Source of the DNA: a virus
Lineage: Duplodnaviria; Caudoviricetes
Virus record (IMG/VR): IMGVR_UViG_3300032247_000581
Location: 31,921-95,920 of that record
Direction: 5' to 3' (one strand)
DNA length: 64,000 bases
The position numbers were made by a program, and so were the translations under genes. The notes below the pieces were generated by a model. The model searched no databases. It was not told the origin of the DNA and saw nothing but the letters and a program-made list of their open reading frames with translations. Of this stretch, positions 5,110-60,906 are shown piece by piece. How positions within the stretch are numbered: position 1 is the first letter of the stretch; each line of letters begins with the position of its first letter.

Positions 5110-7295
5110 TATAGAACCGCCGTTTCCGCAGTAAATCCAGATGCCTGCTCTGTAGCAGAATATGTACCAGCCGTGTAAGAACTGGTGCTGGACCATGTAG
5201 CAGAGATTCCAATTGCACTTAAATCACCCGCTGCTTCTGAAAGACTTGATGCCTCATAAATTACCGAACGACTTGCAAGAGTATACGTTCCAGTTTTTGA
5301 ACCATCAACAGGAAGTTTAAGGTACGCAGGGGTAACAGGAGAGCCTGAAAGCCTTACCCCCACTAACACAAAATCATTACTACAAGAAATGCTGTCAAAT
5401 TTTGTATAACCAGATGAACCCGAAACACTTACTTGTCTTTGCCATTGAATAGTTCCAGAAGAGTTATATTTAGCAACATACGCATACTGAGAATTAACAT
5501 CAGTAAACCCAACAAATACATCACCATTAGAGTTTGTTGAAACAACTTGAATACTTCCACCAACATTGGCGGATGCATTATATAGACGTCTTTGCCATTG
5601 AAGAGTTCCGCTAGAATTAAACTTAAATAAAATAACCCTATTATAGTATGGGCTTGCTGTTTGTGCGGAGGTACCTACTGCGTACACATTTCCCGAAGAA
5701 TCTGTTGTAGAACCTTGAAAATAACTAGACCTTGTTACTGAATAAGCCGTCTGCCATTGAATTGTTCCAGCATTATTCATTTTCATTAGATATGCTCCTT
5801 GGTATGAGCCATTAGTCATATTTCCAACACCGATTATATTTCCAGAAGAATCTACACTTCCTGAGTAACAAACAGCACTTGTAATAGGGGCAATATACAC
5901 CCACTGAACAGTTCCAGAAGAGTTATATTTAATAACGTAAGTAGACTGAGCAGGGGTTCCGCTGTTATTAGCCCACCCTATTGAATACACATTACCTGAT
6001 GAATCTGCCCCACCGCCAGAATTGTACATGGAGCTGCCGTTTCCAAGAATAAAACTCTTAATCCATTGTAATGTTCCAGAAGAGTTCCATTTTGTTGTAA
6101 TTCCATAATATGTTGAACCAGAATCGTTTGTTCCATAACCAAATTGATAATAGTTAAAAGAAGAGTCTAAGGCACCGTACTCTGCTCCTTGATTTTGATT
6201 ATATATATTGTTTGTATAAATTTCACGAGAAACAGTTACAGTTCCACTTCCATTTTGTTTATAGAAAAACGCACGTAAACCACCATTTCCAGTTCTTATA
6301 TTTTCTCCACCAACATAAATATTTCCACTTGTATCAATACCTCCTACGGCTTTTCCATACCCAGTTCCAGTTCCAGTAACTGTCAATGCGGTTGCTGGGT
6401 AAGTGGTAGTAGTTGAATTAGATGCAGAAGAAGCAGCAGATGTTCCTTGAGAGTTTGTTGCAGTAACTGTAAATGTATATGCAGTTCCTGCTGTAAGACC
6501 TGAGACAGTAATAGGGGAGGCACCTGTTCCTGTCAATCCTCCAGGAGATGAGGTTGCAGTGTAGGTAGATACTGCAGCACCACCAGTGGCGTTTGCTGTA
6601 TAAGCAACTGTTGCAGTTGTAGAACCTGTTGCAGTAGCAGTACCAATAGTTGGCGCCTGAGGAACAGATGAAGGAGTTGTAGAAGCAGATGCAGAAGATG
6701 CAGTAGAGGTTCCATTAGCATTTGTTGCTGTGACTGTGTAGGTACGAGCAGTTCCTACAGTGTCAGAAATAGTAATTGGTGAAGAAGAACTTGAACCAGT
6801 TGTTCCTGAAGATGAAGTGACTGTGTAACTAGAAATTGCAGAACCACCAGTTGCCCCAGCAGTAAATGGTACAGATACGTTTGCAGAGCCAGTGTATGAC
6901 TGACCAGTAGCAACGGTAGGTGTACCAATAGTAGGCGCATTAGGAACAGTGGTTGCAGTTATAGAAGACGAAGCGCTAGATGCAGGACCAGTTGCAGTTG
7001 TATTAGTAGCGGTAACAGCAAATGTATAAGAGGTAGCAGATTGTAATCCAGTAACAGTCAATGGTGAACCAGCACCAGAGGCAGTAAAAGAGCCAGGAGT
7101 AGAGGTAGCTGTATAGGAGGTAGGAGTACCACCTGTGGCAGCGGCAGTAAAAGCAACAGTTGCAGAGCCATTGTTATAGGCCCTGGATGTGCCTACATTT
7201 GTGGCAGCGCCAATAGTGGGTGCATCAGGTACATCAGGGATAGCAACACCGCTCTTGGTGATGCCTGATGTATTAGCACGCTTGATATTAGCCAT
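5109..7295 (-). CDS. FN3 repeat fibre protein with C-terminal beta-propeller
   Basis: Three FN3 units; repeated DSSGNVY...KYNSSGT.QW blades. Confidence 0.8.
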   Translation of the reverse strand: MANIKRANTSGITKSGVAIPDVPDAPTIGAATNVGTSRAYNNGSATVAFTAAATGGTPTSYTATSTPGSFTASGAGSPLTVTGLQSATSYTFAVTATNTTATGPASSASSSITATTVPNAPTIGTPTVATGQSYTGSANVSVPFTAGATGGSAISSYTVTSSSGTTGSSSSSPITISDTVGTARTYTVTATNANGTSTASSASASTTPSSVPQAPTIGTATATGSTTATVAYTANATGGAAVSTYTATSSPGGLTGTGASPITVSGLTAGTAYTFTVTATNSQGTSAASSASNSTTTTYPATALTVTGTGTGYGKAVGGIDTSGNIYVGGENIRTGNGGLRAFFYKQNGSGTVTVSREIYTNNIYNQNQGAEYGALDSSFNYYQFGYGTNDSGSTYYGITTKWNSSGTLQWIKSFILGNGSSMYNSGGGADSSGNVYSIGWANNSGTPAQSTYVIKYNSSGTVQWVYIAPITSAVCYSGSVDSSGNIIGVGNMTNGSYQGAYLMKMNNAGTIQWQTAYSVTRSSYFQGSTTDSSGNVYAVGTSAQTASPYYNRVILFKFNSSGTLQWQRRLYNASANVGGSIQVVSTNSNGDVFVGFTDVNSQYAYVAKYNSSGTIQWQRQVSVSGSSGYTKFDSISCSNDFVLVGVRLSGSPVTPAYLKLPVDGSKTGTYTLASRSVIYEASSLSEAAGDLSAIGISATWSSTSSYTAGTYSATEQASGFTAETAVL

Positions 7296-21850: not shown

Positions 21851-23567
21851 TTATTTTTCGTACTCTTCTGGTACACGTCGCTGAGGCAACATGGTTCCAT
21901 AAGCTTCAGTTACCAACTTGTTTCTCAAGTCAGCTTCGCCCATATCTGCAGCTTGTAAAGCAGCATCAATTGTTGGCGGTAGTACTGCAGGAGCAGGTTC
22001 TCCACCCGTAGGTGCACCAGGTGCACCAGGTGTTGCTTGTCCCACCATTCCAGGAGCAGAACCCGTAAGTTCCATAATTTCCTGTTCAATTTGAGTCTGT
22101 AGCAGTTTAAGTGCGCCATCTGCTGTGGCATCGTCCATAAGTTCTTGACGGATTTCATTGAGCTTTTCAGCTGGGAATTCTTCACCAAGTACTCGTAGAG
22201 CACCTTCTTTAGATTCAAGACCAAGGGACAGTAAGGATTGAATTTCATTAAGGGCGATTAATTTATCTAACGGCAGTGGTTGTGGGAACTGTACGTAAGA
22301 ACGGTAGGTAAGTGGGTCATTAGGGTCTAAACGGTCTACTTGACCCTTCTTTAATTTCACATCCGTAGTTGGGTCCCAGATAAATGTCTCTGGTTCCTTT
22401 ACTGCAAGGCTAAGCAGGATGAGTTCGTTAACTCGCTCTAAGCCGTGTGCGTATTGAATAATCTTTTGATGGTAACGGTTCATCAAAGGTTGGAACTGAA
22501 TAGATAGGGCTACACCTGAGGTATTAGATATCGGTTGTGCTTGCCCTAAAGCTGTTTCTGGAACACCAATCATTTCGTGCATAGACTTCTTGAGCATTGC
22601 TAAGAAGTCCATTGCGCCCTTTAATCCTTGAGCGCCTCCTTCAAGATTTTCGACTCTCGCATCTTTTGGTAGACCACCCCATACTTTATTGGCGCCCTTT
22701 TCGAGTTGGGAAGCTTTCGCTCCAATGATGACTGTAACTGGCGCAGCATGATAGTTAACAATGTCGGCAATATCAGTAGCAGTCTCATTGTAAGTGCGAT
22801 TGATACTAATAATGTCATTGCAATCGCTGAGCCCCCAAGGGCTACCGCTAATACGAACATTCGGAATATGAATAACAGGGATAACGCCAAGTGGATTAGG
22901 GCGCGAGTCAATAAGTTCATCATTGATATATTCCTCAATCATGTCATCCGTCAAAATTTCTGTGTAAGTAAACACTTGACGGGTACCTTCTAATGATGTG
23001 CCCCAGAAACGATACTTAAGCTTAAAACGAATCAAGCGCTCGCGGTCATGGGGGTGAAACTCTGGAAATGCAAAAGACGAGTTCAGGGGAAGGATACGAA
23101 CTCGTCCAGGATGCGTTCTACCAGCTGTGTCTTTGTAACCTTCTTCATAAGCAACTTTAATAAAGCAGTCGCCTGATACTCCGCCTTGTTGACCAATCTC
23201 CCACAGTACTGTGGCTTTATTGTTATCTACTTCCCATACTCGCTCTAGCAAGTCAGGAACAATAGCTTCCGTTTCTTTCGGGGAACGGAAGGAGACCCCT
23301 TTACCAAAAGTAAAATTAAGTACAAAGTCAGTAAAGGCGCGGAAATAATTAATTGCCATCTGTGTTTCGCCAACTTGACGGCGGTAAGAATAATGATGGC
23401 CTAGGTACATTGCCCAGTTAAGGGAGTAACGGTTTAAGCGTGGTCCGTGGACCTCACTATTCGAATTCCTCGTCAGCTAATTCAACTAGTCCGAGTGGAC
23501 TAATGGAAATTGTTAAATCGCTGCTAGCGGCGCGGTATGACGGCGGGCTAAAATCTATGGAACTCAT
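21851..23567 (-). CDS. Portal protein; N-terminal 36 codons are separated from the main ORF by a stop and a +1 frame change at 23453-23459
   Basis: Strong AGGAGGTGA RBS and ATG at 23567 give MSSIDF...ADEEFE, then TAG-T-GAG, then VHGPRLNRYSLNWAMYLG in frame with 21851..23410; portal motifs IPVIHIPN...GLSD and SGVAL. Confidence 0.85.
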
Positions 23568-23668
23568 GGCATCACCTCCTCTCCGTCGTGAACAGGAAGA
23601 ACCTGGGGAGTACGTAATGCTCGTACATCTTTAGCAAAAGTTGTGCGCTTGTTAAATATTACTGACAC
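23564..23668 (-). CDS. Possible 34-aa leader ORF coupled (ATGA) to the portal start
   Basis: GGAGG RBS and GTG start; stop overlaps the portal ATG. Confidence 0.35.
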   Translation of the reverse strand: MSVIFNKRTTFAKDVRALRTPQVLPVHDGEEVMP

Positions 23669-23697
23669 GCACTTCCCTCCCAAAACGTAATAGTCAA

Positions 23698-40582: not shown

Positions 40583-41635
40583 ATGGAAAAACTTGAGCCT
40601 ACACTTGATACTCGTTGCGGAAGCTATGCTGGCTACAAAGCTCACCGTGACCGTAATGAGCAGCTCTGCCAGCCATGTCGAGACGCCATGAATGCCTACC
40701 GACGTGATAAATGGAAGAGTGACCCAAAGTATAAGAACCATGGAAAAGCATATAGGGAAAGACATCCAGAGCGCGTAAAAGAGCAAGCAAAACGGCACAT
40801 TAAACACGTTGACCCAGAGGTCAAAGCAGCACGTAAAGCTGAGCGAGCAAAGGCAACTGCTGAACGTGCGGCAATTCGTAAAGCCGAAAAACAAGCTATA
40901 CGAGCTGCAAAGCTATCTGAACAGAGGAAGGCTACTCTTGCTCGTCAAAAAACAGAAAAAGCTCTTAAAGCCCAAAAATCAGCAGAGACTCAAGCACGGC
41001 TAGCGGCAAAGTACGCTGCAATGAACAAAGCCCGCGAAGAGCGCAAAGCAGCAGAGAAAGCCGCAAAAACAGCAGCTCGCAAAGCAGCTAGCGAGGCTCG
41101 ACGCCATCAGCGCAACGAGGAGCGCAAAGCCAACCGCAAGATACGAGAAACTAACCGAACCAAACTTGCACATCAACACGGAACTGGTCCAGGAGATTAC
41201 GACCGATGCCGTAAAAACAATAACGGCGTAGCATGTGATGCCTGCAAAGCAGCAGCAGCTAAGTACGCACGCGAGAAGTTTCATTCAGACCCAAAGTACA
41301 AAGAGGCTGAAAAACGATGGAGACAAGCAAACCCGCATAAGGTATACCGCGACAGTAAAAACCGAGCAGTCAAACATGGTGGCAAACATAAGTACTACAC
41401 ACGCCAACATATCTTTGACAGAGATGGTTATGACTGCTATATCTGCAATACCCCAGTAGACCTTGCGGCTAACCACATTCAAGGGCAACCTGGTTGGGAG
41501 CTTTATCCCCACATCGAGCATGTCAAACCTCTATCCAAAGGTGGAGACGATGTTCTTGAAAACGTAAAGATAGCCCATGCAGTATGCAACATTCGCAAAG
41601 GCACACAATTTGATGAGGCTACGGCTACTGTGTAG
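40583..41635 (+). CDS. HNH endonuclease with duplicated Zn-finger-like modules and Lys/Ala linker
   Basis: RDGYDCYIC...HIEHVKPLSKGG....N...AH..CN..KG. Confidence 0.85.
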   Translation: MEKLEPTLDTRCGSYAGYKAHRDRNEQLCQPCRDAMNAYRRDKWKSDPKYKNHGKAYRERHPERVKEQAKRHIKHVDPEVKAARKAERAKATAERAAIRKAEKQAIRAAKLSEQRKATLARQKTEKALKAQKSAETQARLAAKYAAMNKAREERKAAEKAAKTAARKAASEARRHQRNEERKANRKIRETNRTKLAHQHGTGPGDYDRCRKNNNGVACDACKAAAAKYAREKFHSDPKYKEAEKRWRQANPHKVYRDSKNRAVKHGGKHKYYTRQHIFDRDGYDCYICNTPVDLAANHIQGQPGWELYPHIEHVKPLSKGGDDVLENVKIAHAVCNIRKGTQFDEATATV

Positions 41636-60365: not shown

Positions 60366-60906
60366 TTATTTCCAATTCGGTGATAGGGAGCTAAGACGCT
60401 TAGCTCTGTTTAAATTAACACCCATAGGTGCATCACTCTTTGCGGCAGGACCTGCCTTACCATCATTAGGTAAGTGCGGAGCTGGTGCTAGATGCTGTGC
60501 ATCTGCATTGCGTTTTGACATATATACATTGCCTTCTTTAGCAGCATTCATTTGACGACGAATACCGCGAGTATTGTCTAATTCATCAGGATAGTAATAC
60601 CCTGCAGCATCAATGCGCTCACCTTTATGTACACCGCGTTGGTAACCACGTTGTGTAATGCGAACTTTAAGTGAATCTAAAACATTTTCTGATGTGGAAC
60701 CTGGACGACCACGGTCATCTCTACGAGTTCTAATTGTTCCGAGGTAGCCGTCAGGGATACTCCGCAGAAGGCTGACGACCTACGCCTAAGCGTAGGAAGT
60801 CGAGTTCACTCCTGGCGACTGAAACGCCGCCTCCACCATAATTGGTGTTAGTTCCATACATCCCAGCAGCGCCGAGATTTTGAACGTTTTGATGTGGTCC
60901 TGGCAT
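60366..60906 (-). CDS. Hypothetical protein of about 179 aa requiring a +1 frameshift at CCC-TGA-C (60756-60750)
   Basis: ATG at 60906 lies 6 nt after TATAAT; 51 codons to TGA; the +1 frame is open for 128 codons with no ATG/GTG/TTG in the first 67. Confidence 0.7.

Follow-up and report, generated by a model that had tools for sequence, protein, structure and literature searches.

In gene 60 of phage T4 a 50-nucleotide (nt) bypass is associated with the HNH homing endonuclease MobA (Bonocora et al. 2011, cited in PMC5009743; Manning and Atkins, bioRxiv 10.1101/2022.08.31.505936). In T4 MobA is now a pseudogene while the bypass has been retained, and it is the insert rather than the nearby polymorphisms that blocks nicking by MobA (PMC5009743; bioRxiv 10.1101/2022.08.31.505936). 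The gene encoding the terminase of Streptomyces phage phiHau3 contains two 10-nt UUA-headed inserts that were interpreted as sensing the state of the host bldA tRNA, in a paper that mentions neither HNH nor homing (PMC10732093). In synthetic Escherichia coli stop-hops the stop codon is flanked by matched codons (Weiss et al. 1987, as reviewed in PMC5009743), and a 2016 review stated that short natural counterparts of gene 60 bypassing had long been presumed and that no natural in-frame stop-hop was known (PMC5009743). Here an interrupted portal gene is described from a 64,000-nt stretch (the window) of IMG/VR virus record IMGVR_UViG_3300032247_000581, in which 7 extra nt probably form a minimal translational bypass, or stop-hop, element at the right edge of a homing-endonuclease cassette, as judged from comparison of the sequence with its relatives. 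The portal cassette works like T4 MobA/gene 60 but is not a member of that system; no sequence homology to the gene 60 cassette was seen, the HNH proteins having been left uncompared with MobA. Full-text literature searches found no report of a portal/HNH gap system.

Interruption of the portal gene

Coordinates are window positions, the portal locus is read on the minus strand and codons are given 5' to 3' (Table 1). The first open reading frame (ORF1) opens at ATG 23567 and runs for 36 codons, the last four being GAG GAA TTC GAA, before it meets TAG at 23459-23457 and TGA at 23456-23454. The portal continues in the +1 frame, which is open from 23476, reads GAG GTC CAC GGA from 23455 and ends at 21851. 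The earliest ATG, GTG or TTG of this frame is ATG 23410, which has no Shine-Dalgarno sequence upstream; an alternative portal-frame start upstream of 23410 was rejected, as no ATG, GTG or TTG occurs there. The gene was assigned to the SPP1 Gp6-like portals by its match to Pfam PF05133 (80.4 bits against a cut-off of 25.5, E value 1.8e-22, profile positions 11-410 of 416), a match that begins upstream of Met 23410. With the 7 nt taken out the window portal is a single ORF of 569 codons. The 36 codons, the two stops and the continuation in the +1 frame, along with the strong ribosome-binding site ahead of ATG 23567 and the lack of one ahead of ATG 23410, had been described in the original prediction, made from the letters of this DNA alone, and was confirmed.

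A protein search returned more than 100 homologues with 84-96% identity, each a single protein of 566-576 amino acids (aa) that is continuous at the junction (...ADEEFEVHGPRLNRY...), so that the junction given in the original prediction for the sequence without the 7 nt was correct. The homologues read MSSIDF...ADEEFEVHGPRLNRYSLNWAMYLG and the window matches them after deletion of GA[ATAGTGA]G or, equivalently, GAA[TAGTGAG]; the insert is 7 nt relative to 81 intact loci. Comparison with homologues, proposed as a check at the time, found intact genes that are continuous, others with similar gaps, and conserved codons upstream of the gap; the continuous homologues do not start at MYLG. In the cultured Streptomyces phage GiJojo the portal, 55% identical overall, is continuous at the junction (...SDEEFEMHGPRLNRY...), and its N-terminus has 75% amino-acid identity to the 36 aa of ORF1, for which reason ORF1 and the downstream portal are taken as ancient conserved parts of one protein. 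The peptide encoded by ORF1 is the same as in intact relatives, yet its DNA has many synonymous differences. The 14 codons from the gap to Met 23410 encode VHGPRLNRYSLNWA, and the 16-residue stretch that this begins (through MY) is invariant in 120 listed close homologues and mostly kept in GiJojo.

These codons bear on whether recoding occurs at all. Were the 36-aa peptide and a truncated portal re-initiated at Met 23410 sufficient, alone or together, the gene would be used much as gene callers annotate it (P0015 and others), and ATG 23410 does lie 47 nt past the stop, within reach of re-initiation. Such an arrangement is nevertheless very unlikely: position 23410 has no ribosome-binding site, the conserved VHGPRLNRYSLNWA codons inside the Pfam domain would be lost, loci with a gap at a second site further downstream, or with both gaps, have their next start still further in (MQIAVNYY... 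in L097), and the matching of the codons on either side of the stop would go unexplained.

Two further explanations were rejected. An assembly or sequencing error is contradicted by identical or related inserts in many independent assemblies. The same 7-nt insert is present in L003 (ENA), in L005 and L006 (IMG/VR) and in the P0015 contig (ENA), the last with the layout of the window (a 36-aa gene, a 47-nt offset and a truncated portal). An altered genetic code or a phage suppressor tRNA is unlikely because no tRNA genes are present in the genome and all three stop codons serve it as terminators; all three also occur in the gaps. Public gene calls P0015, P0054, P0109, P0060 and P0052 begin the portal at an internal Met or MNLG. 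Those for P0015, P0054 and P0109 reflect real gaps (P0109 as judged from its N-terminus only). L004/P0060, called from an internal Met, is really an intact gene whose GTG start was missed, a gene-caller artefact, and L002/P0052 was uninformative as an extra split locus, having a run of N at the junction.

Table 1. Features of the interrupted portal locus (window positions).
Feature	Position	Strand	Remark
Native portal ribosome-binding site GGGAGGG (23681-23675) and native GTG start (23668-23666)	23666..23681	-	Now heads the endonuclease remnant; left cassette edge
HNH homing endonuclease gene remnant, 34 codons	23564..23668	-	About 180 internal codons deleted; ATGA overlap with portal ATG
Strong Shine-Dalgarno sequence AGGAGGTGA	23572..23580	-	Cassette-borne, serving the relocated portal start
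ORF1, portal codons 1-36, cassette-type allele	23460..23567	-	From ATG 23567
Internal Shine-Dalgarno-like GAGGA	23467..23471	-	4 nt 5' of the take-off codon
Putative recoding site: take-off GAA 23462-23460, A-site TAG 23459-23457, skipped UAGU 23459-23456, landing GAG 23455-23453	23453..23462	-	
Remaining portal gene, SPP1_portal domain	21851..23452	-	Resume codon GTC 23452-23450; +1 frame relative to ORF1
Second gap site, ATG TAC / CTA	23402..23410	-	Uninterrupted in the window

Inserts in related portals

Related portals were scanned for gaps, allowing any insert of 1-30 nt between conserved flanks. At the position of the window insert (site 1) gaps were found in 12 viral and 6 metagenome contigs. 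A second site, 16 codons downstream and after the Tyr of AMY/LG, was first seen on reading two of the site-1 contigs, and a scan of this site 2 gave 22 viral contigs with a gap. Some 40 contigs from more than 25 metagenomes carry gaps, of 4, 6, 7, 8 or 9 nt at site 1 and of 4, 7 or 8 nt at site 2. In the viral collection about 31 of more than 593 contigs with a related portal are gapped, or about 5% at most. When all fetched loci were classed by insert length in nt at site 1/site 2, 81 were intact (0/0), 10 were 7/0, 4 were 4/0, 2 were 6/0 and 1 was 8/0, while 14 were 0/7, 3 were 0/4, 3 were 9/7 and 1 was 7/4; three loci with an unreadable site 1 had 0, 4 and 8 nt at site 2, one each.

The inserts have a common form, written here as take-off/skipped/landing followed by the resume codon. 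The window has GAA/UAGU/GAG GUC at site 1. Other variants at this site are GAA/UAGU/GAA GUU, GAA/UAGC/GAA GUC, GAA/U/GAA GUC, GAA/UAACC/GAA GUC and GAA/UAGCCC/GAA GUU, together with GAG/UAAG/UAG GUU and GAA/UAA/UAA GUC; those at site 2 are UAU/UAGG/UAC CUA, UAU/UAGU/UAC CUA, UAU/UAGUU/UAC CUA, UAU/U/AAC UUA, UAU/U/GAC UUA and UAC/U/UAC CUG. A stop codon (UAG, UAA or UGA) opens the insert in 13 of the 14 variants, with UUA in the fourteenth. In 10 of the 14 the insert ends in the take-off codon, or in a synonymous codon of the same tRNA, and this is also the first cognate triplet downstream; in the remaining four the landing matches the take-off at two of three positions. In the window one tRNA-Glu reads both take-off GAA and landing GAG, the landing codon being the first Glu-cognate triplet that follows. 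Recoding with a matched glutamate take-off, stop and landing, as the original prediction had it, is strongly supported by this comparison, in which most gap variants keep identical take-off and landing with a stop between them.

The effect on the reading frame varies with length. Inserts of 4 and 7 nt move it by +1 and those of 8 nt by +2, while those of 6 and 9 nt leave it unchanged; in L089 the +1 frame itself contains UAG, so that only a 7-nt move restores the portal. Since the lengths span all three frames, beyond any single frameshift or readthrough, only hopping would explain all of the gaps.

The UUA variant comes from L115 (IMGVR_UViG_3300037045_000044, 5406-5445), a relative with 62% GC, where the 4-nt site-2 insert UAC/U/UAC CUG places UUA in the A site. 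With the insert removed, the L115 portal has no other UUA among its 48 other Leu codons. The same element is present here in a form with a rare "hungry" codon, recalling phiHau3.

The gapped portals otherwise have the appearance of functional genes. After removal of the inserts in silico, 25 of 27 complete gapped portals were open over 561-579 codons. Codons 37-51, which are untranslatable without recoding, encode an identical peptide in every printed gapped allele, and their proportion of synonymous differences (pS) is about 0.7, near saturation; the ratio of nonsynonymous to synonymous proportions (pN/pS) is 0.055 in gapped and 0.052 in intact alleles. The possibility that these portals are dead, whether as assembly artefacts or as defective genomes kept by co-infecting helpers while a selfish cassette spreads, has in its favour that homing elements can spread despite a cost and that L096 carries an additional frameshift. 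It is highly improbable given that the inserts occur in contigs of over 25 metagenome datasets, among them a complete genome with terminal repeats, and that their form is highly non-random, with the stop first and the take-off codon last. Moreover, the HNH genes that accompany the gaps are by now about 50% identical, yet 25 of the 27 gapped portals have otherwise stayed open; because of this divergence the arrangement is taken to be old.

The homing-endonuclease cassette

Full HNH genes of 204-226 aa (PF01844) occupy, in relatives, the position of the 34-codon remnant upstream of ORF1. The 210-aa HNH gene of L003 (PF01844/PF14279) starts at the native portal ribosome-binding site and start codon and ends overlapping the new portal ATG, and the catalytic domain PF01844/PF14279 was found in the proteins of L003, L097, L089 and L090. 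Co-occurrence was measured using tblastn on unique loci for which 1 kb or more of upstream sequence was available (22 gapped, 56 intact). Directly upstream of the portal, 20/22 gapped and 0/56 intact loci have an HNH gene or a remnant of one (Fisher 1.2e-16); the gapped loci comprise 16 with a full HNH gene, 4 with a partial one and 2 with none above threshold.

The insertion point is always the portal start codon, and the flanking 36 codons are recoded. The sequence GGAGGTGA followed by ATG is common to all gap-bearing loci and absent from intact alleles, and the intact loci L001, L004 and L008 align with the window up to the native GTG and then diverge. Sliding-window identities were calculated on aligned sequences, an earlier unaligned table having been discarded as unreliable owing to indels. 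Up to the gap, over 36 codons, the window is 95-97% identical to L003, a figure that drops to 80-88% beyond it; with the intact loci L001 and L008 the identity is 64-72% before the gap and rises to 87-97% just after it; the same dip was seen between L003 and its near-identical intact relative L025. Because this mosaic boundary falls at the gap, the gap appears to be the right edge of a mobile unit made up of the HNH gene, the new ribosome-binding site with its ATG, recoded codons 1-36 and the gap itself.

A maximum-likelihood tree of the HNH proteins divided them into clades A and B (support 100/100). The clade-A genes (6/6) have a site-1 gap only, while the clade-B genes (13/13) have a site-2 gap, 3 of the 13 also having one at site 1. 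Mosaic boundary, co-occurrence and the tracking of gap site by HNH clade together indicate that endonuclease and gap move as one element. Two gaps downstream of a single clade-B HNH were observed in L089, L093, L097 and L098, and such two-gap portals suggest successive invasions by both endonuclease clades at one insertion point.

The original prediction did not see the cassette and took the purpose of the gap to be a limiting or timing of portal synthesis, for which no support was found. A regulatory device of this kind, independent of any mobile element, could be envisaged, as the portal is required at low copy number and the efficiency of recoding would fix the ratio of 36-aa peptide to portal. 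The gaps are confined, however, to at most about 5% of related portals and occur only together with an HNH gene or remnant, their site follows the HNH clade, and the stronger cassette ribosome-binding site and ATG have the look of compensation and not of attenuation, all of which leaves little room for this explanation.

In the window the cassette has decayed. The 104 extra nt left between the native start and the new ribosome-binding site hold a remnant ORF running from GTG 23668 to TGA 23564, of which residues 1-9 resemble the N-termini of clade-B HNHs and residues 9-32 align to the L112 HNH C-terminus (79% over 24 aa, E value 5e-14). Its end, EEVMP*, is that of clade-A HNHs, and a Pfam search of the remnant gave no hit, leaving it without an HNH domain. 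The endonuclease of the window is dead, having lost about 180 internal codons, and the cassette is a composite one; it keeps the site-1 gap, site 2 being intact.

Cultured phages carrying the cassette were not found, the nearest being Streptomyces phages with intact portals; the closest HNH relatives in cultured phages (33% identity) lie elsewhere in mycobacteriophage genomes. The source record, of a freshwater phage, is 95,920 bp long with 42% GC, has direct terminal repeats and is rated 100% complete. The neighbours of the portal in the window are the large terminase, two small genes, a probable scaffold and the major capsid protein. A second, unrelated HNH motif was observed in the early region of the same genome at 41435-41611, inside a plus-strand ORF (40583-41635); it gave a weak tblastn match to the HNH core (about 36% over 45-59 aa, E values 1e-4 to 2e-3) and could belong to another free-standing endonuclease.

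Proposed stop-hop and its relation to known systems

A free-standing HNH gene was inserted exactly at the native portal start, bringing with it a new strong ribosome-binding site and ATG, recoded codons 1-36 and a short insert; in the window the endonuclease was later reduced to its remnant while the insert was retained. In the proposed hop, a ribosome translating ORF1 would arrive with GAA (23462-23460) in the P site and UAG in the A site. Slow termination would allow the peptidyl-tRNA-Glu to unpair and the mRNA to slide by 7 nt, the tRNA would re-pair at GAG (23455-23453), and decoding would resume at GUC 23452. The product would be a normal portal (...EEFE-VHGPR...), while terminating ribosomes would release the 36-aa peptide. 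The insert would disrupt the endonuclease target in the portal gene without a change to the protein, shielding the carrier from its own enzyme, and the strong cassette ribosome-binding site and ATG, the latter replacing the native GTG start of the window's closest relatives, would offset inefficient hopping. The portal is needed at 12 copies per virion. Modest efficiency of hopping would suffice because of this low copy number and the strong ribosome-binding site. Protection of the carrier from the HNH is inferred from the analogy to MobA and from the matching of HNH clade to gap site. It would be consistent with the presence of a site-2 gap at 13/13 loci with an intact clade-B HNH and with its absence from the window, where the clade-B HNH is dead.

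Within the 15 nt upstream of the take-off, 10/11 unique site-1-gapped and 6/54 intact alleles have a Shine-Dalgarno-like tetramer, counts drawn from alleles that share descent and are not phylogenetically independent; no such motif was seen at site 2. In the window GAGGA may act as the corresponding elements do in prfB or gene 60. The cassette-type synonymous codons for ISPLGLV form an 8-bp hairpin (UAGUCC..GGACUA-type) at 23483-23502 on the minus strand, some 20 nt upstream of the take-off. Other alleles, intact ones among them, have hairpins that resemble this one without being the same, and no importance of this hairpin could be demonstrated.

A number of points weigh against the stop-hop. 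The hop itself is deduced from comparison of sequences. Stop-hops in E. coli constructs are inefficient, of the order of a per cent. No RNA structure that might stimulate hopping was found: the stability of the upstream hairpin, the only structure compared between the two groups, is alike in gapped and intact alleles (p = 0.17 and 0.32), and the GGUC-CACG-GACC hairpin that the original prediction placed at the landing site, although present in the window, is specific to it and not conserved in other gap-bearing relatives. The landing match is partial at L089 site 1, in L096 and in two 4-nt site-2 variants. The two gapped portals that are not open, L096 and its duplicate L103, have an additional 1-nt deletion, and conservation after the gap could come in part from recent homing into backgrounds that evolved intact. 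In the window itself, the pairing of a clade-B remnant with a site-1 gap demands a composite history. Finally, the 7-nt variants AGU GAG, AGU GAA and AGC GAA are synonymous with one another, as would suit translation of these bases, and for the window's own 7 nt a +1 shift (FESEVHG) is a minority alternative. In L096 (4770-5100, the same as L103) the gap is the 6-nt GAA/UAA/UAA and the deletion lies about 100 codons into the portal in a locally divergent patch; the locus may be in decay, or the assembly may be an old one of low quality.

The +1 shift was one of two mechanisms left side by side in the original prediction, the other being the hop, and the comparison favours the latter. In a prfB-type frameshift at GAA-UAG the peptidyl-tRNA-Glu would keep its place or slip by a single base, the U would be skipped and AGU GAG GUC read, adding two residues (EEFE-SE-VHGPR). 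The stop in the A site with GAGGA 4 nt upstream is indeed prfB-like, and inserts of both 4 and 7 nt shift the frame by +1. A +1 shift would not, however, rescue the in-frame inserts of 6 and 9 nt, those of 8 nt or L089, and it does not predict an insert that ends with the take-off codon. Re-pairing from GAA to AAU is poor, the slippery CUU U of prfB and its Shine-Dalgarno element 3 nt upstream are not matched here (4 nt), and the added residues would interrupt a stretch in which all homologues are identical. The frameshift is thus unlikely, and the stop-hop is retained as the probable explanation.

The resemblance of this stop-hop cassette to T4 gene 60/MobA extends to its organisation. In both, an HNH homing endonuclease lies beside or in an essential gene and is followed by a divergent copy of the adjoining coding segment and then by a non-coding insert. 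This insert forms the right-hand boundary of the mobile element; its first codon is a stop or a hungry codon, and its landing codon matches the take-off. Decay or loss of the endonuclease with survival of the gap is frequent, and the window is in the same condition as T4. The differences are that the target is a portal and not a topoisomerase, that the lineage is actinophage-like and not T4-like, and that the host gene is not split. The gaps are of 4-9 nt compared to 50 nt (20 in one clade), and the take-off tRNA is Glu or Tyr in place of Gly, gene 60 having GGA codons. No take-off stem-loop was detected at the portal gaps, the upstream peptide is the native conserved portal N-terminus and not a cassette-specific one, gene 60 has a nascent-peptide signal, and two HNH clades go with two different gap sites.

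The short inserts of phiHau3 likewise disrupt the frame of an essential packaging gene of an actinophage with flanks that are contiguous in relatives, and share a slow-to-decode A-site codon, a proposed internal Shine-Dalgarno sequence and a landing codon, L115 having the rare UUA as well; in the portals, by contrast, the A-site codons are mostly stops, and the inserts are shorter, of many lengths and tied to an HNH cassette. With the synthetic stop-hops the portal gaps have in common the take-off, the stop, an identical landing codon and resumption in any frame, but those were laboratory constructs, whereas the portal gaps are natural, lie in an essential gene and have been maintained in evolution. 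The prfB gene, encoding RF2, also has a stop in the A site and a Shine-Dalgarno-like element a few nt upstream; the portals lack its slippery CUU-U re-pairing and include variants of 6, 8 and 9 nt that lie beyond a +1 shift. A candidate prfB-like +1 site of its own, GCG GAG UAU CCC UGA CGG, is present on the minus strand of the window at 60745-60770. The mitochondrial byps of the yeast Magnusiomyces capitatus are GC-rich structured elements of 27-55 nt and are not known to have an endonuclease partner. The portal gaps are like these byps in being many short mobile inserts in coding sequence that are neutralised by bypassing (PMC5009743).

The portal gaps provide a natural series of minimal gaps, with five lengths, two sites, two tRNAs, all three stops and one hungry codon, that could define the minimum requirements for hopping. 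They are also an independent second case of a homing endonuclease travelling with a bypassed insert, and support the idea that bypassing serves to disrupt the nuclease target inside a protein segment that tolerates no change. Similar cases are probably hidden as "frameshifted" or short genes in viral metagenomes, because gene callers split or truncate such portals (P0015, P0054 and P0109 were called from an internal start). On balance, the view is favoured that natural stop-hops of 4-9 nt are maintained and need little beyond a slow A-site codon and a repeated codon, and that homing endonucleases would thereby plant cleavage-blocking inserts in invariant parts of essential phage genes. The combination of endonuclease and bypass would then be a general, convergent strategy, with ribosomes of the actinobacterial type hopping efficiently enough for the production of virions.

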